Source of the DNA: a virus
Taxonomy: Duplodnaviria; Caudoviricetes
Strand: one strand, 5' to 3'
DNA length: 64,000 nucleotides
Virus record (IMG/VR): IMGVR_UViG_3300008116_000002
Both the position numbers and the translations under genes were made by a program. Of the stretch, positions 44,771 through 57,278 are shown piece after piece. The notes beneath the pieces were generated by a model that saw only the letters and a list, made by a program, of their open reading frames with translations, was not told the DNA's origin and did no database searches. Position 1 is the first letter of the stretch. Each line of letters starts with the position of its first letter.

Positions 44771-45151
44771 ATGTCTAAATTTACAGTTGCAGGTGTTTCT
44801 ACTCAGAACGGTATCACTAAGGTTCGTTTCGCGAATGACATCGTGGCTCGCACCAAGCTGTTGTCCAAAGGTGGTCACTCTCCCCTAGAACTTGTTGAGC
44901 TGCCTAAGGCAATGACCAAGGCAGAAGCTTGTCAGTATCTGCTTGATCTAGGTGGCGTGTTTTCTAGTTACAAGAGTCTTATTACTGAGACCAAGGACAA
45001 GAAAAACGGTGTAGGTCCAGTCAAGGCACCGGCGGCAGTTAAGCCTAGTAAGGCTGCTAAGGTTACTAAGGCAAAGCCCACTAAGGTTATTGCACCTAAG
45101 GTGCAGGAAGAAGATCTTGAGATCACTGAGATCAAAGAACTGGCTGCATAA
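44771..45151 (+). CDS. Early hypothetical protein with Lys/Ala/Pro-rich tail
   Basis: Intact ORF; KAPAAVKPSKAAK tail. Confidence 0.65.
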   Translation: MSKFTVAGVSTQNGITKVRFANDIVARTKLLSKGGHSPLELVELPKAMTKAEACQYLLDLGGVFSSYKSLITETKDKKNGVGPVKAPAAVKPSKAAKVTKAKPTKVIAPKVQEEDLEITEIKELAA

Positions 45152-45179
45152 ATAACCGGAAGGTGTTATGAAGTTGAAA

Positions 45180-45195
45180 GCGCCCTTCGGGGCGC
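45180..45195 (+). terminator. UUCG hairpin
   Basis: GCGCCC-TTCG-GGGCGC. Confidence 0.6.
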
Positions 45196-45215
45196 TGTCT
45201 TGTCTTGTATAAAGG

Positions 45216-46034
45216 ATGTTTTTTATGGATGAATATTCAAATTTTTTACCTACGTATGGTATTGTTGGATTGGGGTTCGTAGGCTCTGCAGTTAAGCATT
45301 CAATGCAGGGCAGGGCTAATATTAAAGTAGTCGATGTTGATCCAACCAAATCTTCGCATAGTATAGAACAGTTAATAGATTGTGAAGGTGTTTTTGTTTG
45401 TGTACCAACACCTCAGGCAGATGATGGAGTGTGCGATACGTCAGCTTTAGAAGATGTTTTGACCAAATTAGAATACTACACCGGACCAATTATCAGTAAG
45501 TGTACTGCTCCCCCTGCTTTTTATAAAAAGTTGAGCGAGAAGTATATTAATCTGATCCATGCCCCAGAATTTCTAACTGCGGCAAATGCTAAGCAAGATT
45601 ATATATTAGGCACTTTTGCTATGATTGGCGGATCATCTAGTGCGTTTAGAGGTGAGGCGGAACGTATTATAAGAATTGGGCAAAAGAATTTAAAAGACGT
45701 TAGACATTGTAGTGTTGAAGAAGCAGCGTTGGCAAAGTATGGCATTAATACTTTTCTTGCAACCAAGATTGTGTTCATGAATGAAATGTATTTGCTTTGT
45801 GAAAAGACAGGAGTAGACTTTGATAAGGTTGCCGAGTTAATTAAACTTGATTCTCGTATTGGTTCTACTCATATGAAAGTACCAGGACCAGATGGCTTTG
45901 GTTTTGCAGGAATGTGTTTTCCTAAAGACACTTCTGCACTATATCATTATGCGAAATCAAATGGTATAGAAATGGAACATATGAAAAATGTAATTGAAGT
46001 AAACAAAAAGTTAAGAAACATCGGTAAAAACTAA
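45216..46034 (+). CDS. ugd: UDP-glucose 6-dehydrogenase-like, lacking the C-terminal domain
   Basis: GLGFVG, FVCVPTP, PEFL, K..INTFLATKI, GFAGMCFPKD; only 272 aa. Confidence 0.8.
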   Translation: MFFMDEYSNFLPTYGIVGLGFVGSAVKHSMQGRANIKVVDVDPTKSSHSIEQLIDCEGVFVCVPTPQADDGVCDTSALEDVLTKLEYYTGPIISKCTAPPAFYKKLSEKYINLIHAPEFLTAANAKQDYILGTFAMIGGSSSAFRGEAERIIRIGQKNLKDVRHCSVEEAALAKYGINTFLATKIVFMNEMYLLCEKTGVDFDKVAELIKLDSRIGSTHMKVPGPDGFGFAGMCFPKDTSALYHYAKSNGIEMEHMKNVIEVNKKLRNIGKN

Positions 46035-46043
46035 GACTTACTG

Positions 46044-46051
46044 TATAAATA
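46044..46051 (+). promoter_or_regulatory. T4-type late promoter for the leader peptide
   Basis: Exact TATAAATA upstream of SD AAGGA (46063-67). Confidence 0.7.
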
Positions 46052-46072
46052 ATTGATACTTTAAGGAAACAA

Positions 46073-46177
46073 ATGTTTCATCTAATACAAAACCCCAGTG
46101 TAAGTTGCAAGTCATATGACAGACAGTCAGAGGCCTTTGCACGCACAAATATTCTATGGAGTTATATCGAGGGTTAG
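46073..46177 (+). CDS. Putative attenuator leader peptide, 34 aa (not in ORF track)
   Basis: MFHLIQNPSVSCKSYDRQSEAFARTNILWSYIEG; SD present; last codons form the antiterminator arm. Confidence 0.65.
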   Translation: MFHLIQNPSVSCKSYDRQSEAFARTNILWSYIEG

Positions 46178-46204
46178 AGTATTAAAACGATACTAAGTTT
46201 TGAT

Positions 46205-46240
46205 AACCCTCGGCACTCACAAGGTCCCGAGGGTTTTTGT
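46205..46240 (+). terminator. Conditional intrinsic terminator (attenuator)
   Basis: AACCCTCGG(46205-13)/CCGAGGGTT(46227-35) followed by TTTGT; the 5' arm can instead pair with CGAGGGTTA (46168-76). Confidence 0.75.
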
Positions 46241-46277
46241 TATGAGGTGTTAACACTTTAATAAGTCAAAAAAGTGC

Positions 46278-46306
46278 TTGACACAGATACCAAGTTGTGC
46301 TATAAT
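46278..46306 (+). promoter_or_regulatory. Strong early promoter of the tRNA array
   Basis: (GTGC)TTGACA-17 nt-TATAAT. Confidence 0.85.
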
Positions 46307-46384
46307 AAGCACATATTAAAGAAGTAGGCAATGCAAGACAGCGTTGCTTGTAGTAAATGTTATTTAACAATTTGTACTAGTTTT

Positions 46385-46461
46385 GCCCACTTAGCTCAGT
46401 CGGTTAGAGCACAATCTTGATAAGGTTGGGGTCCCTGGTTCGATTCCAGGAGTGGGTACCA
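46385..46461 (+). tRNA. tRNA-Ile(GAT)
   Basis: Cloverleaf; CAATC-TT GAT AA-GGTTG; TTCGA; CCA. Confidence 0.95.
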
Positions 46462-46462
46462 A

Positions 46463-46538
46463 GTCCCATTCGTCTAGTGGCCTAGGACATCGCCCTTTCA
46501 CGGCGGTAACAGGAGTTCGAGTCTCCTATGGGACGCCA
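46463..46538 (+). tRNA. tRNA-Glu(TTC)
   Basis: TCGCC-CT TTC AC-GGCGG; CCA. Confidence 0.95.
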
Positions 46539-46583
46539 TTTGATATGCCGATTGAGAAATAGTACAGTCAACATATCAAATGG
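46536..46583 (+). repeat. Inverted-repeat spacer 1
   Basis: CCATTTGATATG/CATATCAAATGG, 12 bp, includes the Glu CCA and the Cys 5' GG. Confidence 0.8.
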
Positions 46584-46659
46584 TAAGGTGGCTGAGTGGT
46601 CCAAAGCAGCAGTCTGCAAAACTGTAAAGCCGCCGGTTCAAATCCGGCCCTTACCTCCA
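46582..46659 (+). tRNA. tRNA-Cys(GCA)
   Basis: GCAGT-CT GCA AA-ACTGT; U73; CCA. Confidence 0.93.
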
Positions 46660-46664
46660 GATAA

Positions 46665-46739
46665 GGTCTCAAAGTGTTCATGGACGCACATATGCCTGTC
46701 ACGCATAAAGAAGGGGATCGTTACCCCTTGAGACCGCCA
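46665..46739 (+). tRNA. tRNA-Asp(GTC), atypical T-loop
   Basis: TATGC-CT GTC AC-GCATA; T arm AGGGG-ATCGTTA-CCCCT; CCA. Confidence 0.85.
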
Positions 46740-46741
46740 GA

Positions 46742-46946
46742 ACCCCCGGGATCCCTTACCCGGTAATATTACTAGGGGGTATTGACAGCCACAATGTCAG
46801 GGTGTCGAGATCGGAGCTACCTCAAAACTCCTGGGAAGGAGTGACGAAAAGTCTCGAAGGACAGCGCTGCAACTGACCTTAATAAAAGCGGACGGACAGT
46901 GAAACAACTCAGGAAAGGGCGAGTGCTGGGTGCTCGTAGCTTTCCA
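46742..46946 (+). ncRNA. Unidentified structured RNA A
   Basis: Nested stems ACCCCC/GGGGGT, TGACA/TGTCA, GTCAG/CTGAC, TCGAGA/TCTCGA, ACTCCT-GGGA-AGGAGT, GGAAAG/CTTTCC; ends in CCA. Confidence 0.55.
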
Positions 46947-46948
46947 TT

Positions 46949-47030
46949 GCCCATGTGGTGAAATGGTAGACACGCTTGCCTTAGGAGCAAGTACGAGAGT
47001 GTGGCGGTTCGAGTCCGTCCATGGGCACCA
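46949..47030 (+). tRNA. tRNA-Leu(TAG)
   Basis: CTTGC-CT TAG GA-GCAAG; long variable arm; CCA. Confidence 0.93.
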
Positions 47031-47124
47031 TATTGAAGTGTTGTTTAGGGTGGCAGGTAAAAGTTTAACAAGACTTTGAGGGCTGGAATTCCCGATCTGT
47101 GAACAGCAGAACACTTCAATATGG
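47028..47124 (+). repeat. Inverted-repeat spacer 2
   Basis: CCATATTGAAGTGTT/AACACTTCAATATGG, 15 bp, includes the Leu CCA and the Ala 5' GG. Confidence 0.85.
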
Positions 47125-47197
47125 GGAATTGGCGTAATTGGGAACGCAGTAGCTTTGCAAGCTTCAGTCAGGAGTTCGAATCTCCTATTCTCCACCA
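47123..47197 (+). tRNA. tRNA-Ala(TGC)
   Basis: GTAGC-TT TGC AA-GCTTC; G3.U70; CCA. Confidence 0.93.
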
Positions 47198-47204
47198 AAT
47201 ATTT

Positions 47205-47282
47205 CGGGGAGTAGCTTAGTCCGGTTAAAGCGCCTGCTTTGGGAGCAGGAGATCGAGAGTTCGAATCCCTCTTCCCCGACCA
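47205..47282 (+). tRNA. tRNA-Pro(TGG)
   Basis: CCTGC-TT TGG GA-GCAGG; CCA. Confidence 0.95.
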
Positions 47283-47289
47283 GTTTTAT

Positions 47290-47364
47290 TCCAGAGTAGC
47301 TCAGCGGCAGAGCCGCGGACTGTTAATCCGTTGGTCGTTGGTTCGATCCCAACCTCTGGAGCCA
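47290..47364 (+). tRNA. tRNA-Asn(GTT)
   Basis: GCGGA-CT GTT AA-TCCGT; CCA. Confidence 0.95.
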
Positions 47365-47370
47365 GTTTTA

Positions 47371-47455
47371 GGATGACGAGCAGCATTGGTGACTGCAGCA
47401 GACTGTAAATCTGTCGCCTCAGGCATACGGGGTTCGATTCCCTGGTCATCCACCA
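47371..47455 (+). tRNA. tRNA-Tyr(GTA)
   Basis: GCAGA-CT GTA AA-TCTGT; long variable arm; CCA. Confidence 0.94.
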
Positions 47456-47458
47456 TAC

Positions 47459-47533
47459 GGGAGATTAGCTCAGTGGTAGAGCAGCGCCCTTACAAGGCGA
47501 AGGTCAATGGTTCGACCCCGTTATCTCCTACCA
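47459..47533 (+). tRNA. tRNA-Val(TAC)
   Basis: CGCC-CT TAC AA-GGCG; CCA. Confidence 0.94.
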
Positions 47534-47541
47534 GATTTTAT

Positions 47542-47618
47542 CTGGCGTTAGCTCAGTTGGATAGAGCAACAGCCTTCTAAGCTGTGGGTCGGGGGTTCGA
47601 ATCCCTCACGCCAGGCCA
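47542..47618 (+). tRNA. tRNA-Arg(TCT)
   Basis: ACAGC-CT TCT AA-GCTGT; CCA. Confidence 0.95.
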
Positions 47619-47624
47619 TACAAT

Positions 47625-47698
47625 TGGGGATTAGTGAAATGGTATCACACCGGATTTTGATTCCGAGGTCGTAAGTTCGATTCTTACATCCCCTGCCA
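47625..47698 (+). tRNA. tRNA-Gln(TTG)
   Basis: CGGA-TT TTG AT-TCCG; CCA. Confidence 0.93.
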
Positions 47699-47730
47699 AA
47701 TCGTTATTAAAGTGTTAATAAAACAAATGC

Positions 47731-47759
47731 TTGACAAGAAATTGATTCGGTGTTATAAT
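47731..47759 (+). promoter_or_regulatory. Strong early promoter
   Basis: (TGC)TTGACA-17 nt-TATAAT. Confidence 0.85.
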
Positions 47760-47788
47760 TATGATATAATGTAAATAAGGAGATACAA

Positions 47789-47929
47789 ATGCAACGAAAA
47801 CGTATCGCCAAGCCCCGTAACCCGCTGGTGGCTTTGGCATTGTTTAAGAAAGCGGGTAAGCATCAAAAAACAAACAAAGCATTACGTAGGGAATATAGAG
47901 CGGGCATAGCTCAGTTGGTAGAGCAGTAG
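47789..47929 (+). CDS. Small basic protein, 46 aa, whose stop lies inside tRNA-Lys (not in ORF track)
   Basis: MQRKRIAKPRNPLVALALFKKAGKHQKTNKALRREYR-AGIAQLVEQ; SD AAGGAG; own promoter. Confidence 0.7.
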   Translation: MQRKRIAKPRNPLVALALFKKAGKHQKTNKALRREYRAGIAQLVEQ

Positions 47930-47975
47930 ACTTTTAATCTATGTGTCGTGGGTTCGAATCCCTCTGCCCGTACCA
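47900..47975 (+). tRNA. tRNA-Lys(TTT)
   Basis: GTAGA-CT TTT AA-TCTAT; CCA. Confidence 0.95.
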
Positions 47976-48059
47976 TATTAAAACACATTTCGAGCGGTGT
48001 TCCGATATCGGCCAGCCCGCCCCAAAGTAGATGTCTAGGGTAGTGTGTTTTAATATGGT
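47972..48059 (+). repeat. Inverted-repeat spacer 3
   Basis: ACCATATTAAAACACA/TGTGTTTTAATATGGT, 16 bp, includes the Lys ACCA. Confidence 0.85.
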
Positions 48060-48410
48060 GAAGAAGCAAGGTTGGGATTTCGTCAGATAATGACGGTGCG
48101 CTGAAAAAACCCAGTAATGCGAAGCCGAAAGGCATCCTTGCGGTAAGCAGAAAGTTGGCGTGGCGACCAATCATCATAAAGTTCCGGTTACTACTTTCCT
48201 GAAAGTAGCGTATGGTAAACGAGAAAGTCCCGGTGGCTATGGCACCGTTAGCGAGACATAGACTCTGTATTTCGATGCGGTGTCTCCGGTGTCTCAGACA
48301 ACATAGCAACGTGGACACTACGCAGCAAACCGCTATTAGTGTTTGGACAGGGCAACAACTCCAGCATAGGGGCGATCTGTGGAAAGACGTGGCCTAAGCA
48401 AGAATACGAT
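48060..48410 (+). ncRNA. Unidentified structured RNA region B
   Basis: GCAAGG/CCTTGC, CGTCA/TGACG, GCC-GAAA-GGC, CTACTTT/AAAGTAG, CGGTG/CACCG, GAGACA/TGTCTC with a TTCG loop; no credible ORF. Confidence 0.55.
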
Positions 48411-48486
48411 GGTGTCTATAGTGTAGTGGTCTGCACGCCAGATTGTGGGCCTGGCAGTATGAGTTCAATCCTCATTAGACACCCCA
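48411..48486 (+). tRNA. tRNA-His(GTG)
   Basis: Encoded G-1; CCAG.-TT GTG GG-.CTGG; C73; CCA. Confidence 0.88.
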
Positions 48487-48508
48487 AAGTTAATCGCGTG
48501 TGAGGCGT

Positions 48509-48522
48509 GGGGCTTCGGCCCC
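48509..48522 (+). terminator. UUCG hairpin
   Basis: GGGGC-TTCG-GCCCC. Confidence 0.5.
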
Positions 48523-48540
48523 TAACCTATTTGTACTTGT

Positions 48541-48630
48541 GGAAGTGTGGCAGAGTCCGGTTTATTGCAACAGTCTTGAAAACTGTCGAACAGAAATGTT
48601 CCGTGAGTTCGAATCTCACCGCTTCCGCCA
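48541..48630 (+). tRNA. tRNA-Ser(TGA)
   Basis: ACAGT-CT TGA AA-ACTGT; long variable arm; G73 CCA. Confidence 0.95.
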
Positions 48631-48643
48631 CTAAGGAGTAATT

Positions 48644-48793
48644 ATGCCAATGTATGAAACAACAGTAAGAACGCCACAGGGTGAAGTAAAAGATAGAGTG
48701 TTTGCAAAAGATTTACAAGAAGCAAGAATGCTTTTTGAACAAAGACACGGACCTAGAAACGTACCATATATACCTAAAGTAATTCCAAGTTAG
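48644..48793 (+). CDS. Small protein, 49 aa (not in ORF track)
   Basis: MPMYETTVRTPQGEVKDRVFAKDLQEARMLFEQRHGPRNVPYIPKVIPS; SD AAGGAG. Confidence 0.65.
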   Translation: MPMYETTVRTPQGEVKDRVFAKDLQEARMLFEQRHGPRNVPYIPKVIPS

Positions 48794-48805
48794 AAGGAGA
48801 AACAA

Positions 48806-49369
48806 ATGCCTGCAATTTTTTTAGTTAGTGATACTCATTTCGGCCATGCAGGCGTTTGTAAATTTCTACGTGACGATGGCACTAAATTACGTCCATGGGA
48901 TAACCCCGAGGACATGGATGAAGAAATGGTCAAGCGGTGGAATGAAACTGTTAGACCAAAAGATAAAGTTTATCATTTAGGAGATGTAGTTATTAATCGA
49001 AAGGCTTTAAAAACGCTTAGTAGATTAAACGGTGAAAAGGTCTTAATCAAAGGTAATCACGACATCTTTAAACTTGAAGAATACACTGAGTATTTTAAAG
49101 ATGTTCGAGGTTATCATGTACTGAATGGAATGATTCTAAGCCACATTCCTATTCATGAAGAAAGCCTTGCGAGGTTCGGGACTAATATTCATGGACATCT
49201 ACATTACAATCGTGTAAAGAAAAATGAAGTCATTGATCCTCGTTATCACTGCGTATGTGTAGAGCATACCGACTACCGCCCAATTCTTTTTGAGGATGTC
49301 ATTAAAAAGATTCAAGAAGAGGGTGGGCATATTGGATTTAAAAATGGCAATGGACCTATTATAGATTGA
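48806..49369 (+). CDS. Calcineurin-like metallophosphoesterase
   Basis: SDTHFGH, HLGD, KGNHD, SH, HGHLH. Confidence 0.9.
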   Translation: MPAIFLVSDTHFGHAGVCKFLRDDGTKLRPWDNPEDMDEEMVKRWNETVRPKDKVYHLGDVVINRKALKTLSRLNGEKVLIKGNHDIFKLEEYTEYFKDVRGYHVLNGMILSHIPIHEESLARFGTNIHGHLHYNRVKKNEVIDPRYHCVCVEHTDYRPILFEDVIKKIQEEGGHIGFKNGNGPIID

Positions 49370-49379
49370 GGAGTTTGAA

Positions 49380-49586
49380 TTGAATACTAAGTTGAAAGCA
49401 ATTAAACAGACAGCTATGATGGTAGTTATCATATGTCTTATTCCTATGATTCTAACGTTTTTGTTTACTTCCGAGATAGCATCTTATATTTTTATCATAG
49501 GTATGGTAGCATTTTTTATATACATTATGTATTCTGTAAATCTAGCATTTATAGAATTTGAGGAAAAGTTTAAAAATAAGGAGTAA
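49380..49586 (+). CDS. Small two-TM membrane protein
   Basis: TTG start after GAGGAG; two hydrophobic helices. Confidence 0.55.
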   Translation: MNTKLKAIKQTAMMVVIICLIPMILTFLFTSEIASYIFIIGMVAFFIYIMYSVNLAFIEFEEKFKNKE

Positions 49587-49592
49587 GTATTT

Positions 49593-49687
49593 GGAGCGTT
49601 GGCCGAGTTGGTCGAAGGCACTTTCCTGCTAAGAAAGCATCTGGGCAAAAACCTGGATCATTGGTTCGAATCCAATACGCTCCGCCA
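49593..49687 (+). tRNA. tRNA-Ser(GCT)
   Basis: CTTTC-CT GCT AA-GAAAG; long variable arm; CCA. Confidence 0.94.
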
Positions 49688-49692
49688 GCAAT

Positions 49693-49728
49693 GCCCCCGT
49701 AGTTTAATGGTAAAACAGCGGATTGTAT
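49693..49728 (+). pseudogene. 5' half of a tRNA gene, truncated in the anticodon loop
   Basis: GCCCCCG-TA-GTTT AATGGTA AAAC-A-GCGGA-TT..., with no matching 3' half. Confidence 0.7.
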
Positions 49729-49733
49729 AAATA
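49726..49733 (+). promoter_or_regulatory. T4-type late promoter
   Basis: Exact TATAAATA at the truncation point, upstream of the endonuclease SD. Confidence 0.7.
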
Positions 49734-49752
49734 ATAGTAAAGGAGAAATCTT

Positions 49753-50403
49753 ATGCTATTATGCAAATTTTGCCAAAAAGAATGTAAGAATGAAAACTCA
49801 TTGAGGAATCACAAGAGACTTTGTAAAGAAAATCCAAATAAACAACCACACCCTAAAGGTAATAGCGGAAAAGTTGGTTGGAATAAAGGGCTAACTGCAG
49901 AAACTGATGATAGAGTTTTTGCTAATAGAGAAGCTTTACGAAAACAAAGAAAAGAAAATGGTTCTAATTGGATAGGAAGAAAGCATTCAGATGAAACTAA
50001 AGAATTATTATCAATAAGAGCGTCTGAACGTTTATGTAAAAATTCAAAATACTCTATAAATTTTGAATATAAACCTGGAATCATATTAGAATCTTCATAT
50101 GAAGTTGAAACTGCTAAAATTTTAGATGAATTGAATATAGAATGGATTAAAGTTAGGACTGGTTATAAATGGGATGACAATGGAAAGATAAGAAGATATG
50201 TCCCTGATTTTTTCCTTCCGAAATATAACATATTTCTAGATCCAAAAAATGATTATTTGATTAAAAAAGACAAAATAAAAATAGATTCTGCAATGAAACT
50301 TAATTCAATAACTATTATTGTGTTATCAAAAGATGATTTGAATGTAGAATCTATAAAAAGTAAATTGCCTACCGTAGCTCAAGGAGAGCAGGGTGCCTTA
50401 TAA
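49753..50403 (+). mobile_element. Free-standing homing-endonuclease-like gene (Zn finger, NUMOD3-like, PD-(D/E)XK)
   Basis: CKFC...HKRLC; GRKHSDETKELL; SSYE...YVPDFFLP...LDPK. Confidence 0.7.
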
Positions 50404-50457
50404 GCACTTCGACCAGATAAGTCCCAGGTTGTGGTTCGATTCCGCACGGTAGGACCA
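50368..50457 (+). tRNA. tRNA-Ile(TAT) with long variable region
   Basis: CCTACCG/CGGTAGG acceptor; GGTGC-CT TAT AA-GCACT; TGTGG-TTCGATT-CCGCA; CCA. Confidence 0.75.
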
Positions 50458-50459
50458 GA

Positions 50460-50534
50460 GGTAATGTAGCATAACGGTAGTGCACCGCCTTCATACGGCG
50501 CAAGGTATAGGTTCAAATCCTATCATTACCACCA
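50460..50534 (+). tRNA. tRNA with CAT anticodon (elongator Met or Ile2)
   Basis: GGTAATG/CATTACC; CGCC-TT CAT AC-GGCG; CCA. Confidence 0.85.
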
Positions 50535-50544
50535 TAGTTTCAGA

Positions 50545-50620
50545 CGCGGATTAGGGAAGAGGTCATCCCGCTAGGCTCATAACCTGGAGATCGCTGGTTC
50601 GAATCCGGCATCCGCAACCA
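50545..50620 (+). tRNA. tRNA-fMet(CAT)
   Basis: C1xA72 mismatch; CTAGG-CT CAT AA-CCTGG; CCA. Confidence 0.85.
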
Positions 50621-50628
50621 GTTTATAA

Positions 50629-51216
50629 ATGAATATGAAAATTTATGATAATGTTTTACCGAATCAAACTTTTTCTAATTTAAAAAATAGAATTTTTGAT
50701 TCCAATTTCCCTTGGTTTTTTAGTAGAACTTCTGTAGAAAATCCTATAGAGGATAATATTTTAACCTATAGTTTTTCTCATGCGGTTATGAATCACGGTG
50801 TGCCAAATTCTATAATATTTGACACAATTAATAGTTGCATCTTAACCATGTTAGATAATTGTAATATAAAACTAAATATGTTATTAAGTATTAGACTTGG
50901 ATTACTACAACCAGTGTCTAGAGAAAATCATAGTAATGATCCGCACGTGGATAGTCAAGAAAAACACAAGGTGGGTTTATTCTATTTAAATACTACAGAT
51001 GGCGCAACAACAGTATATAATGAAAAGTACGATCCTTCTACAAAGATGGATCCAACAGAATATTATAGATCGGTTCTAAATAGAAATCTTTCTATTCAGT
51101 CCAAAGTAGAATGCACTGAAAATAGATTAGTTATTTTTGATGGTATGTATTATCATTCAAGTACTACTCCTACCGATGTACCTAGGAGAGTAGCATTAAA
51201 TTTTAATTTTGTATGA
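50629..51216 (+). CDS. 2OG-Fe(II) oxygenase (phage type)
   Basis: PHVD...YHSS...RRVALNFNF. Confidence 0.8.
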   Translation: MNMKIYDNVLPNQTFSNLKNRIFDSNFPWFFSRTSVENPIEDNILTYSFSHAVMNHGVPNSIIFDTINSCILTMLDNCNIKLNMLLSIRLGLLQPVSRENHSNDPHVDSQEKHKVGLFYLNTTDGATTVYNEKYDPSTKMDPTEYYRSVLNRNLSIQSKVECTENRLVIFDGMYYHSSTTPTDVPRRVALNFNFV

Positions 51217-51218
51217 TA

Positions 51219-51296
51219 CCGCCATTAGCTCAATTGGAATAGAGCGCAACGCTACGGACGTTGAGGTTAGGGGTTCGAGTCCTTTATGGCGGGCCA
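51219..51296 (+). tRNA. tRNA-Arg(ACG)
   Basis: CAACG-CT ACG GA-CGTTG; CCA. Confidence 0.93.
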
Positions 51297-51874
51297 GTTT
51301 CTGAAGGTGGAATTGCTATTAATTCTTCAATACCAAAGTAATAGTCTTTAAGAATTTCTGACATTAGATCGCATATTTTTATATTTTTTTCAAAACCAGC
51401 AAGATCATTTTTTCTACCTTCTATTTGCTTTTCAACAAGTTCAAGTATTAAATTTTTTCTTTTGGTTTTAGAATTTACTCGACGTAGTACTTGTTTTAAA
51501 TGTTCGAGATGAACATTACATACATTAATATTGTGGTGCATATCTGTTCGTATTTTTATAACCTCATCCTGCATTAGGACAATTAGATCATCTGTTTCTG
51601 GGTTTAAGTTAGGAACAAGTCTTGACACCATCTGAGAAATATGTTCTAATGCAGCATTGCGAAGAGTTAGATCTTCTGAGGACTCACCTAACAGATCAAA
51701 TTCTTTTCTTCGAATAGGATCGATTAGAATTTCATATGCAAGTTTAATACGAACGAATATTTGTTCATCCCCACCCTTGTCGGGATGATGCACTTGAGCC
51801 AATGAACGAAATTTTATTTTAATTTCTTCATCTGTTGCATCAATCGGAATATCTAATTCGATGTAAGGATTCAT
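51284..51874 (-). CDS. J-domain (DnaJ-like) protein
   Basis: N-terminal J domain with HHPDKGG; helical C-terminus. Confidence 0.88.
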   Translation of the reverse strand: MNPYIELDIPIDATDEEIKIKFRSLAQVHHPDKGGDEQIFVRIKLAYEILIDPIRRKEFDLLGESSEDLTLRNAALEHISQMVSRLVPNLNPETDDLIVLMQDEVIKIRTDMHHNINVCNVHLEHLKQVLRRVNSKTKRKNLILELVEKQIEGRKNDLAGFEKNIKICDLMSEILKDYYFGIEELIAIPPSETGPP

Positions 51875-51912
51875 GGCTATAAATTATTTTATAGTATTTA
51901 TTAGGAGATAGT

Positions 51913-52095
51913 ATGTCAGGAAAAGGATCTAAACCAAGACCATTTGCAATAACCAGGGAACACTTTGTAGAAAACTGGGATATGATTTTTAACAAAGAAA
52001 ACAATACTGGTACAGATAAAAATGAGTATCAAGACATTCTTTCAACCGAGGAAGCAGTATTATCAGCTTTCGAAAACTTAAAGGAAGTAAAATGA
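51913..52095 (+). CDS. Conserved small phage protein
   Basis: MSGKGSKPRP...NWDMIF; SD AGGAG. Confidence 0.7.
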   Translation: MSGKGSKPRPFAITREHFVENWDMIFNKENNTGTDKNEYQDILSTEEAVLSAFENLKEVK

Positions 52096-52991
52096 ATCTC
52101 GCTGGTGTTAACGGCAGCATAGCGGTCTCCAAAACCGAAGGACGGGGTTCGAATCCCTGGCGGGGTGCCAAATATATTGCTCTACTACTTGCATTCGTAA
52201 CTTGCTTTGCGTCTGCGCATGAGCCTAAAAAGAAAAAGAAAAAGAAAGTAGTTACTGCGGAAACTGCAAGCTATGTGGTGTACAACAATACAAAAGATGC
52301 TTACGAGTATATTAGAGAAAAAGAAAAGGTTCGCCCAATAGCAAGTGTCACTAAGCTAATGACGGCAATGGTTGCTCTAAATTATGATTTGAATTTAAAT
52401 CGAGAACTTAAAATTCAATCTAAGGTAGGTGGGACTTTACCGAGAAACAAAAGTTATACTAGGCAAGAATTGTTTGGAGCAATGCTTGTTCGAAGTGATA
52501 ACTCCGCGGCAGAAACTTTGGCTAGTGATTTTCCTGGAGGTAGAGAAGCCTTTATTCGTGAGATGAATAAATTTGCAAACTATATCGGTATGCGAGATAC
52601 AAACTTCGATGATCCAACAGGACTGAGCGCTGCAAATACTTCGACAGCCACAGATGTTGCGGCGATGGTTGCACATGCAGCACAATATACTTTGATTCGA
52701 GAAACTAGTACAAAGAAGCAGGTTGAAATTGATACTCAATATAAGAGAAAAATTAGAAAACTTGTTTTAAACAATACAAACAAACCTGTTCTTTTTAACT
52801 TTGATGATATTGTCGTTAGTAAAACAGGCTTTACCTCCAGAGCAGGATATTGTTTGGCTTTGGCAGTTGAACGAAACAATCAAAGATATTCTGTAGTTAT
52901 TTTGGGTTCTAGAAATAAGCAAGCTAGAATTCATAAAGCCGAGGACATTTTGTATAATCATATTGCATACAAAGATATTGACACTAATTAA
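52092..52991 (+). CDS. D-Ala-D-Ala peptidase S11 (PBP7/PbpG-like)
   Basis: SxxK (ASVTK), SxN (SDN) and KTG motifs; hydrophobic signal segment. Confidence 0.9.
   Translation: MNLAGVNGSIAVSKTEGRGSNPWRGAKYIALLLAFVTCFASAHEPKKKKKKKVVTAETASYVVYNNTKDAYEYIREKEKVRPIASVTKLMTAMVALNYDLNLNRELKIQSKVGGTLPRNKSYTRQELFGAMLVRSDNSAAETLASDFPGGREAFIREMNKFANYIGMRDTNFDDPTGLSAANTSTATDVAAMVAHAAQYTLIRETSTKKQVEIDTQYKRKIRKLVLNNTNKPVLFNFDDIVVSKTGFTSRAGYCLALAVERNNQRYSVVILGSRNKQARIHKAEDILYNHIAYKDIDTN
52096..52170 (+). tRNA. tRNA-Trp(CCA), nested in the S11 peptidase frame
   Basis: ATCTCGC/GCGGGGT acceptor; CGGT-CT CCA AA-ACCG; GGTTCGAATCC; G73 CCA. Confidence 0.85.
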
Positions 52992-53029
52992 GAAAGAATA
53001 TATAATTAGACTAGTTCAAAGGGGAAGTT

Positions 53030-53503
53030 ATGAGAAAAAAGTTGGACATTCAAGAAATCAAAAGTTTCATTGAATCGCAAAGCCCGGAAACTAAAATTTA
53101 TCTTGGAGCGGACTCTGAACGATATAAACATAATGGTAAATGGTATGCGGATTATACTATTGCAGTTGTAGTTCATATTGATGGTCGCCATGGGTGTAAA
53201 ATTTTTGGTGAGGTTCAAACTGAACTAGATTATGATGCAAAAAACAGCAAACCATCTATGCGTTTGATGAATGAGGTCTACAAGGTTGCAGAATTGTATC
53301 AAAAGATTGTGGATGTCGTCGAGGACAGACACGTAGAAATACATTTGGATATTAACCCAGATGAAAAACATAACAGTAGTATTGTGATTCAGCAAGCAGT
53401 TGGTTATATCAAAGGTATGTGTAATGTGGTACCTATGGTTAAACCAAAAGCATTTGCCGCAAGTTATGCAGCAGATAGACTTAAAGAATTGCTTGCAGCA
53501 TGA
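53030..53503 (+). CDS. RNase H-like protein (DUF458/YkuK-like)
   Basis: YLGADS, RLMNEV, IHLDIN, AAD. Confidence 0.75.
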   Translation: MRKKLDIQEIKSFIESQSPETKIYLGADSERYKHNGKWYADYTIAVVVHIDGRHGCKIFGEVQTELDYDAKNSKPSMRLMNEVYKVAELYQKIVDVVEDRHVEIHLDINPDEKHNSSIVIQQAVGYIKGMCNVVPMVKPKAFAASYAADRLKELLAA

Positions 53504-53508
53504 AATTC

Positions 53509-53582
53509 GCCCTCTTAGTTAAATGGTATAACAGTTGATTTGTAATCATCTATTGGCAGTTCGATTCTGTCAGAGGGCACCA
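53509..53582 (+). tRNA. tRNA-Thr(TGT)
   Basis: TGA-TT TGT AA-TCA; CCA. Confidence 0.92.
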
Positions 53583-53598
53583 TTTTAGAAAGGTCGGT

Positions 53599-53799
53599 AT
53601 GTTAGGATTGGAACAGGCAGGTGTATTTTTAGGAGCAACAATTCTTATTGGCTTTGGTATAGCATTTATTGGAATGGTTGTGATTTTTCTTAATAACATG
53701 ATTCATAGATTTTGGAAGCCGTTAAACTGGTTCGGAAAGTATTTTAACTTTAACGAGCCAACCAACCCTGAGCCTCCAAAAACTAAACCTTCATTATAA
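53599..53799 (+). CDS. Small membrane protein
   Basis: One long hydrophobic helix. Confidence 0.6.
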   Translation: MLGLEQAGVFLGATILIGFGIAFIGMVVIFLNNMIHRFWKPLNWFGKYFNFNEPTNPEPPKTKPSL

Positions 53800-53808
53800 G
53801 GAGTTTGT

Positions 53809-53961
53809 ATGCAAAAGGAATTACTAAAAGAAAATGGACCTAAGTGTGGTTGTGGTCGTAGCCCAAGTGGGTATTGCATTGGTTGGCATGGACTTTCTGA
53901 ATCGGAATATAAAGAGCGTTTGGAACAATACAAGCAAGATCTAGGCGAGAACGACAAATAA
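53809..53961 (+). CDS. CDGSH/NEET-like Fe-S or Zn protein, 50 aa (not in ORF track)
   Basis: CGCGRSPSGYCIGWH (3 Cys, 1 His); SD AAGGAG. Confidence 0.6.
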   Translation: MQKELLKENGPKCGCGRSPSGYCIGWHGLSESEYKERLEQYKQDLGENDK

Positions 53962-53971
53962 ATAGTTACAT

Positions 53972-54045
53972 GCGGGATTAGTTTAATGGTAAAACGAAAG
54001 CCTTCCAAGCTCTAATCATCGGTTCGATTCCGATATCCCGCTCCA
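53972..54045 (+). tRNA. tRNA-Gly(TCC)
   Basis: AGC-CT TCC AA-GCT; U73; CCA. Confidence 0.93.
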
Positions 54046-54049
54046 TAAT

Positions 54050-54337
54050 ATGCGTATTCAAAAAGATGAGACTTACGAGCAATGGTCAGAAAAGGTTCGT
54101 CTTTTTGAATATGGAGTTGCACTGCAAAGAATTGCTAAAGGCGACGATATAGATATTGTTTTGGAGTCTATGTCGAAAAAAATTAATCAAAAACTTTTGC
54201 ATCCTTTGATCGAAAGCATCAAACAATCATGTCAAATAGATTATGATCCTTTGATCGCAAGAAAAAATTACGAAGAAAATTACTTAGGAAAAGCAAATCC
54301 TGTAGCAGATCATATGAATGATGTAGACTTCTATTAA
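54050..54337 (+). CDS. Stand-alone glutamyl-tRNA reductase dimerisation-domain-like protein
   Basis: ALQRIAKGDDIDIVLESMSKKINQKLLHP resembles the HemA C-terminal helices. Confidence 0.55.
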   Translation: MRIQKDETYEQWSEKVRLFEYGVALQRIAKGDDIDIVLESMSKKINQKLLHPLIESIKQSCQIDYDPLIARKNYEENYLGKANPVADHMNDVDFY

Positions 54338-54343
54338 TCACAA

Positions 54344-54392
54344 AGACCCCCTTAAACTTTGTGTCTATATAAATAGATATAAAGGAGGGTCT
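54344..54392 (+). promoter_or_regulatory. SD-sequestering hairpin with internal late promoter
   Basis: AGACCCCCTT(54344-53) pairs with AAGGAGGGTCT(54382-92); TATAAATA at 54368-75. Confidence 0.7.
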
Positions 54393-54821
54393 ATGATAGA
54401 TATTAATGAATTCATTAAAACTAGTAAACAAGAACGGCAATCTCATTTATTATTATCTGAAAAATGTATTGAACGTGGGGGAAATTCGACCAATCACAAG
54501 GGGGTATTAGCTCAGTATTTGAATACCTCTATCCCTTCGGGTAGAATACTTTTATGCCATGCGTGCAACAATGAAAAATGTAGTAATCCAAAACATTTAT
54601 ATTGGGGTACAGACAAAGAAAATATTACTGAAGATAATAAAAAATGGAAATCTGTTTGGGAAAGAACCATTGAAAAATATGGATATGAGGAAGCCTGCAG
54701 GATAAATTCTCGTAAGCAAATTGGAAACAAAAATGGTTCGGGCAATAAAGGTAAATCTAAAACTGAAGAACATAAAAAAAAGATAGCAAAGTCTATTAAA
54801 AGCAATTATAATAAGATGTGA
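54393..54821 (+). mobile_element. HNH homing endonuclease with NUMOD3-like tail
   Basis: LCHACNNEKCSNPKHLYWGT.KEN; KGKSKTEEHKKKI. Confidence 0.8.
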
Positions 54822-54831
54822 TGTATTTAAT

Positions 54832-54917
54832 GCGAGTGTGGTGGAACGGTATACACTTTGGACTTAAAATCCAACGCCCGTAAGGGATTGAGGGTTCAAA
54901 TCCCTCCACTCGTACCA
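54832..54917 (+). tRNA. tRNA-Leu(TAA)
   Basis: TTGGA-CT TAA AA-TCCAA; long variable arm; CCA. Confidence 0.94.
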
Positions 54918-54948
54918 GTGTTTTATATTTTTATTTTAAGGAGATTGA

Positions 54949-55485
54949 ATGAAAACAGTAGGTGATAAACTTGAATCATTTTCAGTTACCGGTGTTAATC
55001 CCGGTAAGGATGATTTCTTTACTATTACAGAAAAATCTTTTGAAGGTAAGTGGAAAGTAATTGTTTACTATCCAAAAGATTTTACATTCGTATGCCCAAC
55101 AGAAATCGTAGCATATGATAAATTGTTCCAAGACTTTGCAGATCGTGATGCAGTATTGTTGACAGGTTCAACAGATAATGAATTCTGCAAACTAGCATGG
55201 CAACGTAGTCATGAAGATCTTTCAAAGATCAAGCATATTCAATTTGCTGACACCGCACGTGAATGGGGCGTATCTTTGATCGAGCAATTGGGTGTGTTCT
55301 ACGCACCGGCAGGCGCAGCACTTCGTGCAACCTTTATCGTTGATCCAGAGAACACCATTCAGCACGTTACCGTAAACAACTTGAACGTTGGTCGTAGCCC
55401 AGAAGAAACACTTCGTATTCTTGATGCGCTACAAACTGGTGAACTATGTGCATGCAATCGCACAATCGGCGGAGAGACTCTATAA
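54949..55485 (+). CDS. ahpC: Peroxiredoxin AhpC
   Basis: YPKDFTFVCPTE; RATFIVDP; GRS..E.LR.LDALQ; LCAC. Confidence 0.95.
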   Translation: MKTVGDKLESFSVTGVNPGKDDFFTITEKSFEGKWKVIVYYPKDFTFVCPTEIVAYDKLFQDFADRDAVLLTGSTDNEFCKLAWQRSHEDLSKIKHIQFADTAREWGVSLIEQLGVFYAPAGAALRATFIVDPENTIQHVTVNNLNVGRSPEETLRILDALQTGELCACNRTIGGETL

Positions 55486-56003
55486 TGACTGCTTGGGTAG
55501 ATACACTAAAAGAAGTAAGTATTCCTGAGTATGCCAAGGATACTAAACTTAATTTAGATGCGGTTATCAAACGTAGTTCACTACCCGCAGAAGAGGCGGA
55601 GGCAATTGCTCTTGCAGCTGCCTTTGCTACAGGTAATAGTAAACTATGGACATGGCTTCACGATCAACTTACAGATCGTAAAGAGGCAGATGCCGCTCTT
55701 ACCGCAGGCGCAATCATGGCACAAAATAATGTATGGTATCCATATGTTGAAATGGCAGATGATGCGAACCTAAAAGGTCTTCCTGCTCAACTTCGTATGA
55801 ATGCAATTGCAAGCCATGGTGGTACAACAAAGGCAAGGTTTGAAGCATATAGTCTTGCAGCAAGTATTGTGGGCAAGTGTCATTTTTGTGTAAAAGCGCA
55901 TTACGAAACTTTGAAGCAAGAAGGTTATACTGTAGAACAATTACGAGACATTGGTCGTATTGCTGCAGTAATGAAAAGTGTTGCAAGTGTTTTAGCTAAT
56001 TAA
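55485..56003 (+). CDS. ahpD: Alkyl hydroperoxide reductase AhpD
   Basis: MAQNNVWY and ASIVGKCHFCVKAH; TAATG coupling to ahpC. Confidence 0.93.
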   Translation: MTAWVDTLKEVSIPEYAKDTKLNLDAVIKRSSLPAEEAEAIALAAAFATGNSKLWTWLHDQLTDRKEADAALTAGAIMAQNNVWYPYVEMADDANLKGLPAQLRMNAIASHGGTTKARFEAYSLAASIVGKCHFCVKAHYETLKQEGYTVEQLRDIGRIAAVMKSVASVLAN

Positions 56004-56010
56004 AGCACAA

Positions 56011-56087
56011 GGGCCGGAAGCTTAATTGGTATAAGCGTCCGACTCATAATCGGGGGACAGTGAGTTCGAGTCTCACCCGGCCCACCA
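56011..56087 (+). tRNA. tRNA with CAT anticodon, Ile2-like
   Basis: TCCGA-CT CAT AA-TCGGG; GGGCC acceptor; A73 CCA. Confidence 0.85.
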
Positions 56088-56101
56088 TTTAAGGAGAAGT
56101 T

Positions 56102-56362
56102 ATGCTAGGTATTATAGAAAATGATCGTGTAGATAAAGGTAGATATACCTCGCAAGAAGCAGCAAATAAAGTAGGTGGCATTTATAATTTGGTTTTAATT
56201 GCAAGTGCCAGAGCACGAGAACTAAAAAAACATCAATCCGCAGATACTGCAAGAACTATGATTGTTGCGGCACTCGCAGATGTTGAAGATGGTAAGGTAG
56301 GTGCAGATTATCTGCGTAGGCATCAAAAAGATATTGACAAACAATATCGCAAAAGCAAATGA
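56102..56362 (+). CDS. rpoZ: RNA polymerase omega subunit homolog
   Basis: YNLVLIASARAREL and ALADVEDGKVG match the RpoZ conserved helices. Confidence 0.7.
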   Translation: MLGIIENDRVDKGRYTSQEAANKVGGIYNLVLIASARARELKKHQSADTARTMIVAALADVEDGKVGADYLRRHQKDIDKQYRKSK

Positions 56363-56373
56363 ACAACTTGTGA

Positions 56374-56402
56374 TAGACTTTTTCCGAAAAGTATATTATA
56401 AT
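56374..56402 (+). promoter_or_regulatory. Early promoter
   Basis: TAGACT-17 nt-TATAAT. Confidence 0.6.
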
Positions 56403-56449
56403 TGTACTGTAGTTAAATGCTACATTTTTTTATTTTAATGGAGATCAAT

Positions 56450-56701
56450 ATGTTGAAAGAACGTATTTTGAAAGTACTTAAGTCTGGTCGCCAATACACT
56501 CCTGCTCAACTCGCAGGTTTGACTGGCACTTCTGAGGATTCTATTCGTCCTCGTATCAGCGAGCTTCGTTCTGAAGGCTTCGCAATCTACACTAACAGCA
56601 CCAAGAATGGCAAGACTGCATATCGCCTAGGCACTCCTAGTCGTAAGATGGTTGCTGCTGCTTATCATCTTTATGGCAGCGAGGCATTTGCTCGGGTATA
56701 A
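56450..56701 (+). CDS. Winged HTH DNA-binding protein
   Basis: Start 56450 after GGAG; TPAQLAG...SIRPRISELRSEG...YRLG. Confidence 0.75.
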   Translation: MLKERILKVLKSGRQYTPAQLAGLTGTSEDSIRPRISELRSEGFAIYTNSTKNGKTAYRLGTPSRKMVAAAYHLYGSEAFARV

Positions 56702-56729
56702 TCTAATCCTTATTGCCTAAACTTATATT

Positions 56730-57278
56730 ATGAATATCAATTTTTCCGATCCTTCAGTTAAGAAAGAGATGAACAAACTAGTCGCTGCCAAGCGCAGTGG
56801 TCTAGTCAAGTTGACGCAAGATCAGCTTGAGAGTATCGCCCAATACTCTAAGTGGAAATATGAAGAGAAGAAGGCTTCTTTATCTCCTCAAAAGAAAGCA
56901 GCTCTTCGCAAAAAGACTCGTGCAGCTCACAGAGCTAAAAAAGCAGACCCATCTAAATTCGGAAAGACCGAATACACCGCTCTAAAGACCAGAGCGAAAG
57001 AAAAGAATCTGCCATTTGATCTAACTCCAAGCTTTTTGCAGGATCTCTTTGATACGACAAACGGTGTTTGTCAACAAACAGGTATTCCTTTTGATATGAC
57101 TTTAGGCACTAAAAAGAATAGAAACCCGTTGCGGCCTAGCATTGATCGTATATCCTCAGATGGCGGATATACTCAGGACAATGTGCGAGTAGTCCTTACA
57201 CTGGTAAATATTGCGAAAGCTGATTTTTCAGATGACGTAGTAAATCTGGTAATTAAGGCCTGGGCTGAAAAAATTTAG
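56730..57278 (+). CDS. HNH/His-Me-finger-like endonuclease
   Basis: CQQTG...PSIDRI...GYTQDNV...VNIAK. Confidence 0.7.
   Translation: MNINFSDPSVKKEMNKLVAAKRSGLVKLTQDQLESIAQYSKWKYEEKKASLSPQKKAALRKKTRAAHRAKKADPSKFGKTEYTALKTRAKEKNLPFDLTPSFLQDLFDTTNGVCQQTGIPFDMTLGTKKNRNPLRPSIDRISSDGGYTQDNVRVVLTLVNIAKADFSDDVVNLVIKAWAEKI

Follow-up and report, generated by a model that had tools for sequence, protein, structure and literature searches.

The stretch of DNA analysed here, 64,000 nucleotides in length and called the window below, originates from an uncultured T4-like lake phage. Its DNA polymerase is of the family-B gp43 type and shares at most 49% identity with cyanomyovirus polymerases, a DnaB-like helicase is also encoded by the phage, and the DNA sequencing runs in which the stretch occurs are freshwater and lake metagenomes. 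A large tRNA array is present in the window, and a short leader region with its own promoter and open reading frame (ORF) lies directly ahead of it. The features of the locus, with the grounds on which each was assigned, are as follows:

46044..46051, plus strand: putative T4-type late promoter TATAAATA (motif, position and conservation)
46063..46067, plus strand: Shine-Dalgarno sequence AAGGA of the leader ORF (kept in leader types I and II)
46073..46177, plus strand: leader ORF of 34 codons plus TAG, containing all 20 amino acids (ATG at 46073)
46091..46096, plus strand: segment 1, AACCCC, in codons 7-8, predicted to pair with A as an anti-antiterminator (folds and type-specific complementarity)
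46098..46146, plus strand: hairpin P1 inside the ORF, with an apical stem at 46117-20/46126-29 and the loop AGACA (covariation)
46159..46176, plus strand: segment 2, consisting of A (46168-76) and its 5' extension GAGU (46159-62) (pairing with B and its extension)
46204..46218, plus strand: segment 3, consisting of B (46204-13) and ACUC (46215-18), pairing with A as antiterminator or with C as terminator (folds and covariation)
46227..46238, plus strand: segment 4, consisting of C (46227-35) and the U-tract T5 (46234-38), a predicted intrinsic terminator with B (fold and covariation)
46278..46306, plus strand: early promoter of the tRNA array, matching the sigma-70 consensus (12/12 match plus TG)
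46385..56087, plus strand: tRNA array of 25 genes with interspersed ORFs (putative regulated target)

The window array begins with tRNA-Ile at 46385 and covers 19 amino acids, Phe being absent. Relatives have arrays of 21-24 tRNAs that serve these same 19 amino acids; a Phe tRNA was missing from all arrays examined (46385-56087 in the window and those of L175, L183, L169, L182, and L178). A preliminary description of this DNA had placed an early promoter at 46278, and a perfect extended sigma-70 promoter, TTGACA-17-TGnTATAAT, is indeed present at 46278-46306, downstream of the attenuator proposed below; a similar sigma-70-like promoter was found 79-125 nt past the stop codon of the leader ORF in nearly every homologue. 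Two further structures were observed in this part of the locus. The 5' leader of the tRNA-Ile precursor contains a conserved 7-bp hairpin (46327-46352), also present in L004, L005, L036, and L046, with compensatory changes (GCAATGC/GCGTTGC versus GCAATAC/GTATTGC) and a loop, AAGACAG or AAAACAG, that resembles the AGACA loop of P1. In one clade, an extra GC-rich stem-loop that may be a second terminator lies between the terminator and the early promoter (L004 3866-3900, L005 3812-3846, and the same in L045).

Homologous loci were collected from lake metagenomes and IMG/VR. No match was obtained when 45900-46400 was compared with GenBank phages by blastn, or when IMG/VR was searched with the neighbouring gene and two exact patterns. 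Protein relatives of the upstream UDP-glucose-dehydrogenase-like gene led to the leader contigs L001-L005, L035, L036, L045, and L046, and gapped DNA patterns over the conserved 3' part (A and B) led to L047, L048, L074, and L167-L188 (IMG/VR). The gapped patterns left the N-terminal 25-30 codons free, and the resulting set is unbiased in composition except for Trp, Ser, and Gly near the end of the ORF. A scan of metagenome contigs with an 18-mer core gave 29 matches, which were rejected: L013, L018, L020, and L024 were unrelated (for example, Bacteroidetes promoter regions), and the other 25 loci showed no similarity past the 18-mer. A generic terminator pattern matched more than 119 loci, the only related ones being L074 and the already known L048. 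In total, about 35 homologous loci were obtained, encoding 17 distinct peptides of four divergent types: type I, to which the window belongs (34-36 aa), type II (38 aa), type III (35 aa), and type IV (32 aa).

At all loci with enough DNA, a sigma-70 promoter and then the initial tRNA of a 20-25-tRNA array come directly after the leader, and no tRNA was found upstream of it. Leaders ahead of the tRNA arrays of related phages are what the preliminary description had proposed to look for; those found all have an in-frame ORF stopping at or just after A. In most type I loci the dehydrogenase gene lies upstream of the leader, in L005 and L045 an additional ORF does, and in L048 and L074 a gene for a 126-residue protein takes the place directly upstream. 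Since the upstream gene varies, the module travels with the array. More distant relatives (L037-L042) carry the array without any leader.

The late promoter, the Shine-Dalgarno sequence, and the 34-codon ORF with all 20 residues, the first ten of them all different, were found exactly where the preliminary description had placed them. Nine of the ten copies of TATAAATA in the window lie on the gene strand and one on the other. Five copies, including that of the leader, are situated 25-34 nt ahead of the ATG of an ORF, and the other four of these precede long ORFs. The motif is invariant among the homologues except in L003 (CATAAATA) and L048 (TATATATA). In the homologues that bear AAGGA (types I and II), it is located 5-8 nt ahead of the ATG. 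In three lineages, namely L035/L047, type III, and type IV, AAGGA is absent and the ATG follows TATAAATA by exactly 5-6 nt. T4-type late transcripts begin about 6 nt downstream of the late promoter motif, and because the ATG of these three lineages sits where such a transcript should begin, the spacing suggests that their mRNA is leaderless.

Complementarity within the leader RNA was examined next to the ORF and inside it. A, CGAGGGTTA (46168-76), comprises the last codons and the first two bases of the stop codon, and is complementary to TAACCCTCG (46204-12); B, AACCCTCGG (46205-13), pairs alternatively with C, CCGAGGGTT (46227-35). Bases just 5' of A can pair with the first bases of the terminator loop, and this extension helix lengthens A:B. 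Each homologue was folded at three lengths, namely RNA ending at A, RNA ending at B, and the full leader. In the RNA ending at A, pairing of segment 1 with A belonged to the minimum-energy fold in every homologue, and in the window it enclosed P1. In the RNA ending at B, A:B with its extension was the minimum-energy fold in all homologues but L003, at -21.5 kcal/mol for A:B in the window and -17 to -24 kcal/mol for A:B with the extension across homologues. The complete leader folded into segment 1:A plus the B:C terminator in all homologues but L001. The terminator alone had -17.5 kcal/mol in the window and -16 to -20 kcal/mol in all homologues, with a 9-bp GC-rich stem and a tract of U3-6. 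The segment 1:A helix is short (5-9 bp), and the two alternative states are near-isoenergetic. The preliminary description had claimed the alternative pairing of A:B and B:C with a U-tail; the complementarity is present at those sites, and both structures fold as it had claimed.

These pairings are conserved in spite of sequence differences among the types. Segment 1 is AAACCC, UUUUAACCU, or ACCCU according to type, each form being complementary to its own A, and the extension helix occurs as GGAGY:RCUC, GGAGUG:CACUCC, GGG:CCC, or GUAC:GUAC. In the terminator, the pair formed by the T of B and the A of C occurs as U-A, U-G, and C-G. A:B with its extension shows two compensated pairs, and 94.9% of cells were paired versus 33-52% when the partner was slid. 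P1 shows three compensated pairs, and its covariation score was reached by 0 of 500 shuffles; these compensatory changes alter residues of the peptide (Asp to Gly or Ser; Ser to Pro or Leu). P1 is conserved in types I, II, and IV, and type III carries another sequence in the same place. All 17 distinct leaders kept the alternative A:B and B:C pairing with covariation, as the preliminary description had expected of homologues. It had the 2:3 versus 3:4 logic right, but its account was incomplete, with segment 1 and P1 missed. Taken together, the predicted folds have the full 1:2, 2:3, and 3:4 anatomy of an attenuator, and in the model an untranslated leader also terminates. Runs of regulatory codons are absent; instead, the leaders contain 19-20 different residues over 32-38 codons.

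Other elements of the leader RNA were also considered. The loop between A and B is not conserved and is unrelated between clades, and it therefore holds no aptamer. A search of 45000-57000 against Rfam (E ≤ 1) gave no family in the leader, and T-box (RF00230) was not matched. The window's own fold contains an alternative local hairpin, UAUCGAGG/UUUUGAUA, which was rejected as a conserved feature since L004, L036, and the other types lack it. The Trp codon UGG was considered as a T-box-like acceptor-binding motif, and support for this was not found. Separately, the 12-mer TTTGCACGCACA (46143-46154) in the 3' strand of P1 is nucleotide-invariant in types I and II, beyond the needs of pairing.

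RNA from the locus was sought in eight lake metatranscriptome sets from at least six studies, available as assembled contigs that had a depth of 2-7 and could include DNA. All eight contained contigs on the leader or on 46240-46312, that is, from the terminator to the expected start of the early-promoter transcript; RNA from 46240-46312 lies upstream of that start and hence does not come from the early promoter. None of the eight contained contigs on the upstream gene (45400/45600-46064). The RNA contigs begin at or after 46071, none upstream of the late promoter, and two (46071-46368 and 46147-46306) span the terminator. Because the contigs cover the leader and the read-through region and not the upstream gene, transcription of the leader starts close to the late promoter and some RNA reads through the terminator, as judged from unstranded contigs of low depth. 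One RNA contig ends at 46240, which is weak evidence for the terminator; contig ends do not show true RNA ends.

Two additional RNA signals were observed. In four independent metatranscriptomes, RNA contigs begin at 46216-21, within the terminator loop and immediately past the 3' side of the antiterminator extension, and no promoter that would explain these starts was recognisable there; reverse transcriptase could have stopped at the A:B helix, the RNA could be processed or cleaved at this site, or, at such low depth, the coincidence could be due to chance. Another RNA, discrete and very abundant, covers 46752-46914, between tRNA-Asp (46665-46739) and tRNA-Leu (46949-47030), with one contig at 46755-46914 (depth 250) and a second at 46752-46893 (depth 168) that has adaptor letters directly at both ends. 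This stretch is about 80% conserved in L047 (7009-7217), has no Rfam match, and has a fold energy no better than that of shuffles. The tRNA cluster may thus encode a stable small RNA, comparable to the species 1 and 2 RNAs of T4.

We propose, with a probability of roughly 0.6, that the leader region is a ribosome-mediated (leader-peptide) transcription attenuator heading the tRNA array. From this anatomy and from the trp paradigm we infer the effector (the ribosome), the direction of regulation, its late timing, and the following steps. The late promoter would give rise to a short RNA whose first feature is the ORF of 32-38 codons, followed by the four-segment switch. If the ribosome is absent, segment 1:A and B:C would form and transcription would terminate. 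A ribosome slowed within about the first 27 codons would mask segment 1 and melt P1, and A would pair with B; with A:B formed, the terminator would be blocked and late transcription would continue beyond the early promoter and reach the tRNA genes. A ribosome keeping step with the polymerase would reach the stop codon and cover A, B:C would form, and transcription would terminate. The early promoter downstream would supply tRNAs early regardless, and the extra tRNAs are probably made late only when decoding is slow.

With about one codon per residue, the leader would report the supply of charged tRNA, or the decoding speed, for the whole pool. It is tentatively suggested, at somewhat less than even odds, that the leader acts as a universal sensor of aminoacyl-tRNA supply, in which depletion of any single tRNA causes a stall and a replacement tRNA set is produced on demand. 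The causes of depletion envisaged are starvation, codon-usage mismatch, and host defences that cleave tRNA; connecting the leader with anticodon nucleases is purely conjectural. Among the points that count against the attenuator reading, single regulatory codons are of low sensitivity except under severe depletion, and a trans-acting factor could bind the over-conserved TTTGCACGCACA or the AGACA loop.

The amino-acid content of the leader was compared with several expectations. The preliminary description had proposed simulating how often a 34-mer holds all 20 residues, and this gave a probability of about 1e-3 with the amino-acid composition of the phage; the frequency in real 34-residue windows of phage proteins was 9e-4. 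Among the 96 ATG-ORFs of 30-40 aa in the window, the leader is the only one with 20 residues. Nucleotide shuffles of the window ORF gave a mean of 16 residue types (P = 0.003), and shuffles of all 17 ORFs gave a mean of 16 types and probabilities of 0.002-0.05 each for reaching the observed number; the other two frames of the same RNAs hold 15-19 types. The expectation of the preliminary description that homologues would retain the amino-acid diversity was borne out: 12 of the 17 peptides hold all 20 residues and the remaining five hold 19, three lacking only Asp and two only Phe.

The four types have only 13-23 residues in common, yet the diversity is 19-20 throughout. His, Asp, Val, Lys, and Ile occupy differing positions across lineages: Asp occurs at three different positions among type I lineages; His, Val, and Asp are at new positions in type II; and in one type III variant Ile has disappeared from one site and appeared at a different one. 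To allow for the relatedness of the sequences, a conditional test was used, in which residues identical to the nearest other type were held fixed and the remainder was randomised. The P values came to 0.007 in type III, 0.11 in type II, and 0.14 in type IV; L004, tested against the window, gave 0.036. Combination by Fisher's method gave 6e-3 for the three types alone and about 2e-4 with the root observation included, values that are approximate given the relatedness of the homologues. A column-shuffle test on seven type I and II lineages gave P = 0.008. Evidence from these comparisons that the diversity itself is selected is real but moderate.

Not every residue would be sensed equally well. 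The preliminary description had noted that Gly occurs only at the last codon and that Trp lies near the edge of the ribosome footprint. For Trp this applies to all homologues: its codon always precedes the stop by about six codons, which places it at the margin of the ribosome footprint over A; for Gly it applies to the window's own clade. Because of these positions, Trp and, in the window clade, Gly would be poorly sensed. The match between the leader codons and the phage tRNAs, which had also been pointed out, is no better than in the genes of the phage: 15 of 33 codons have Watson-Crick cognates among the phage tRNAs versus 0.43 genome-wide (P = 0.44), with no enrichment. The arrays encode tRNA-Asp though some leaders lack Asp, and most leaders contain Phe though tRNA-Phe is absent. 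As a separate observation, the type IV leaders lack exactly Phe, as the arrays do, and the other leader types contain it.

The same attenuator could operate with a diversity that is incidental, the switch sensing ribosome-polymerase coupling or late ribosome availability and not the tRNA pool, in the manner of pyrBI-type or antibiotic-sensing attenuators. All structural and frame evidence applies to this explanation too, 13 of the 20 residue types of type I lie in nucleotide-invariant columns, Asp or Phe can be lost, and codon matching is absent. It does not readily account for the retention of 19-20 residues in four types with so few residues in common, for conditional probabilities of 0.007-0.14 per type (2e-4 to 6e-3 combined), or for the reappearance of lost rare residues elsewhere while other frames reach only 15-19. 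On balance, we regard it as unlikely.

The evolution of the ORF bears on whether it is translated and whether its product matters. The ATG and the reading frame are invariant in all homologues, with the stop at or just after A. In types I, III, and IV, the stop codon and the 3' edge of A overlap; in type II, including L048, the stop is found 10 nt past A. Indels between the ATG and A, of which at least five are independent and in-frame, are all multiples of 3, or sum to one in L048; the indels of the 5' UTR and the A-B loop do not follow this rule. The GAG/CAG-GGN codons of A are in the same reading frame in every homologue, and the two other frames are closed by stops in most homologues. In the type III leaders L167, L168, L172, and L174, unlike in other types, the +1 frame across the ORF was observed to be stop-free as well. 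Variable columns at the three codon positions numbered 15/17/17 in the leader ORF versus 108/74/226 in the neighbouring gene of the same genomes, and the leader shows no third-position bias. Synonymous differences are 2-3 times rarer in the leader than in the neighbouring gene (pS of about 0.25 versus 0.45-0.75), and dN/dS is 0.2-1.4 versus about 0.1. A search of the ESM Atlas with the leader peptide gave no usable match, and neither relatives nor recognisable protein features were found. Since the codon positions vary equally and compensation in the hairpin rewrites residues, the sequence of the peptide appears unimportant. At the level of sequence comparison, this is the signature of a regulatory leader, in which translation and RNA structure matter and the residue sequence largely does not.

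The equal conservation of codon positions and the low synonymous divergence would also fit a riboregulator that is not translated, in which a protein or small ligand binds P1 and the linker and picks the fold, the ORF being a by-product. The invariant 12-mer in the 3' strand of P1, the AGACA loop, and the similar AGACAG/AAACAG loop in the hairpin before tRNA-Ile point in the same direction. This explanation is distinctly improbable in view of the invariant ATG with either a Shine-Dalgarno sequence or the exact leaderless spacing, the at least five independent in-frame indels, the stop fixed beside A, and the mostly closed other frames; in addition, no Rfam family, including T-box, was matched, and P1 has a different sequence in type III. 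An ordinary late gene for a 34-residue protein with an insulating terminator, the extra pairings being due to chance or stabilising the mRNA, would have the canonical late-gene geometry of the four other TATAAATA-ORF pairs in the window and would suit a peptide whose C-terminal half is fairly conserved, but it is highly improbable given a dN/dS of up to 1.4, RNA-compensatory changes that alter residues, mutually exclusive pairings kept with covariation in all types, no protein relatives or features, and a leader tied to the array and not to neighbouring genes.

Read as an attenuator, the phage leader can be compared with three known systems. Classical leader-peptide attenuators (trpL, hisL, pheL, thrL, and leuL, with ilvL and thrL multivalent) contain runs of regulatory codons. 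The phage leader resembles them in its short leader ORF, its four segments with 1:2, 2:3, and 3:4 pairings, a terminator ahead of the putative target, and a stop codon placed so that a finishing ribosome would mask segment 2. It differs from them in having no codon run and about one codon per amino acid, in having a tRNA array and not biosynthetic enzymes as its target, and in being phage-encoded, with a putative T4-type late promoter and, in several lineages, an apparently leaderless mRNA. Attenuation of amino-acid operons is the subject of a modelling paper (PMC1183508).

In the ribosome-stalling attenuators vmlR, bmrCD, and the erm type, a class represented in Term-seq work, slow translation of a short ORF frees the antiterminator (PMC9226507, PMC5314783). 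As in these, the signal proposed for the phage leader is translation speed and not one metabolite. The stalling attenuators respond to antibiotics or arrest peptides and control cellular resistance genes, whereas the phage leader has a conserved ORF composition and tRNA as its putative output. T-box riboswitches share with the phage leader a terminator/antiterminator switch and, on the present proposal, tRNA charging as the signal; unlike them, the leader has no specifier stem or T-box motif, and an ORF replaces the tRNA-binding platform. In the literature searched, attenuation of tRNA genes was not reported for either phages or cells. Two recent reports tie phage tRNAs to escape from tRNA-cleaving defences and treat them as constitutive (PMC10264068, PMC11555353).

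It has long been asked for what reason phages have large sets of tRNA genes and by what means they control them. The putative attenuator is self-contained within about 195 nt, and the hypothesis is directly testable without culturing the host. If it is true, the phage would measure decoding speed and answer with tRNA synthesis, which amounts to feedback on the translation apparatus. Attenuation would then be extended on both sides, from single-codon runs to a maximally diverse leader as the sensor and from enzymes to tRNA genes as the output, and it might be a widespread means by which phages control tRNA expression.
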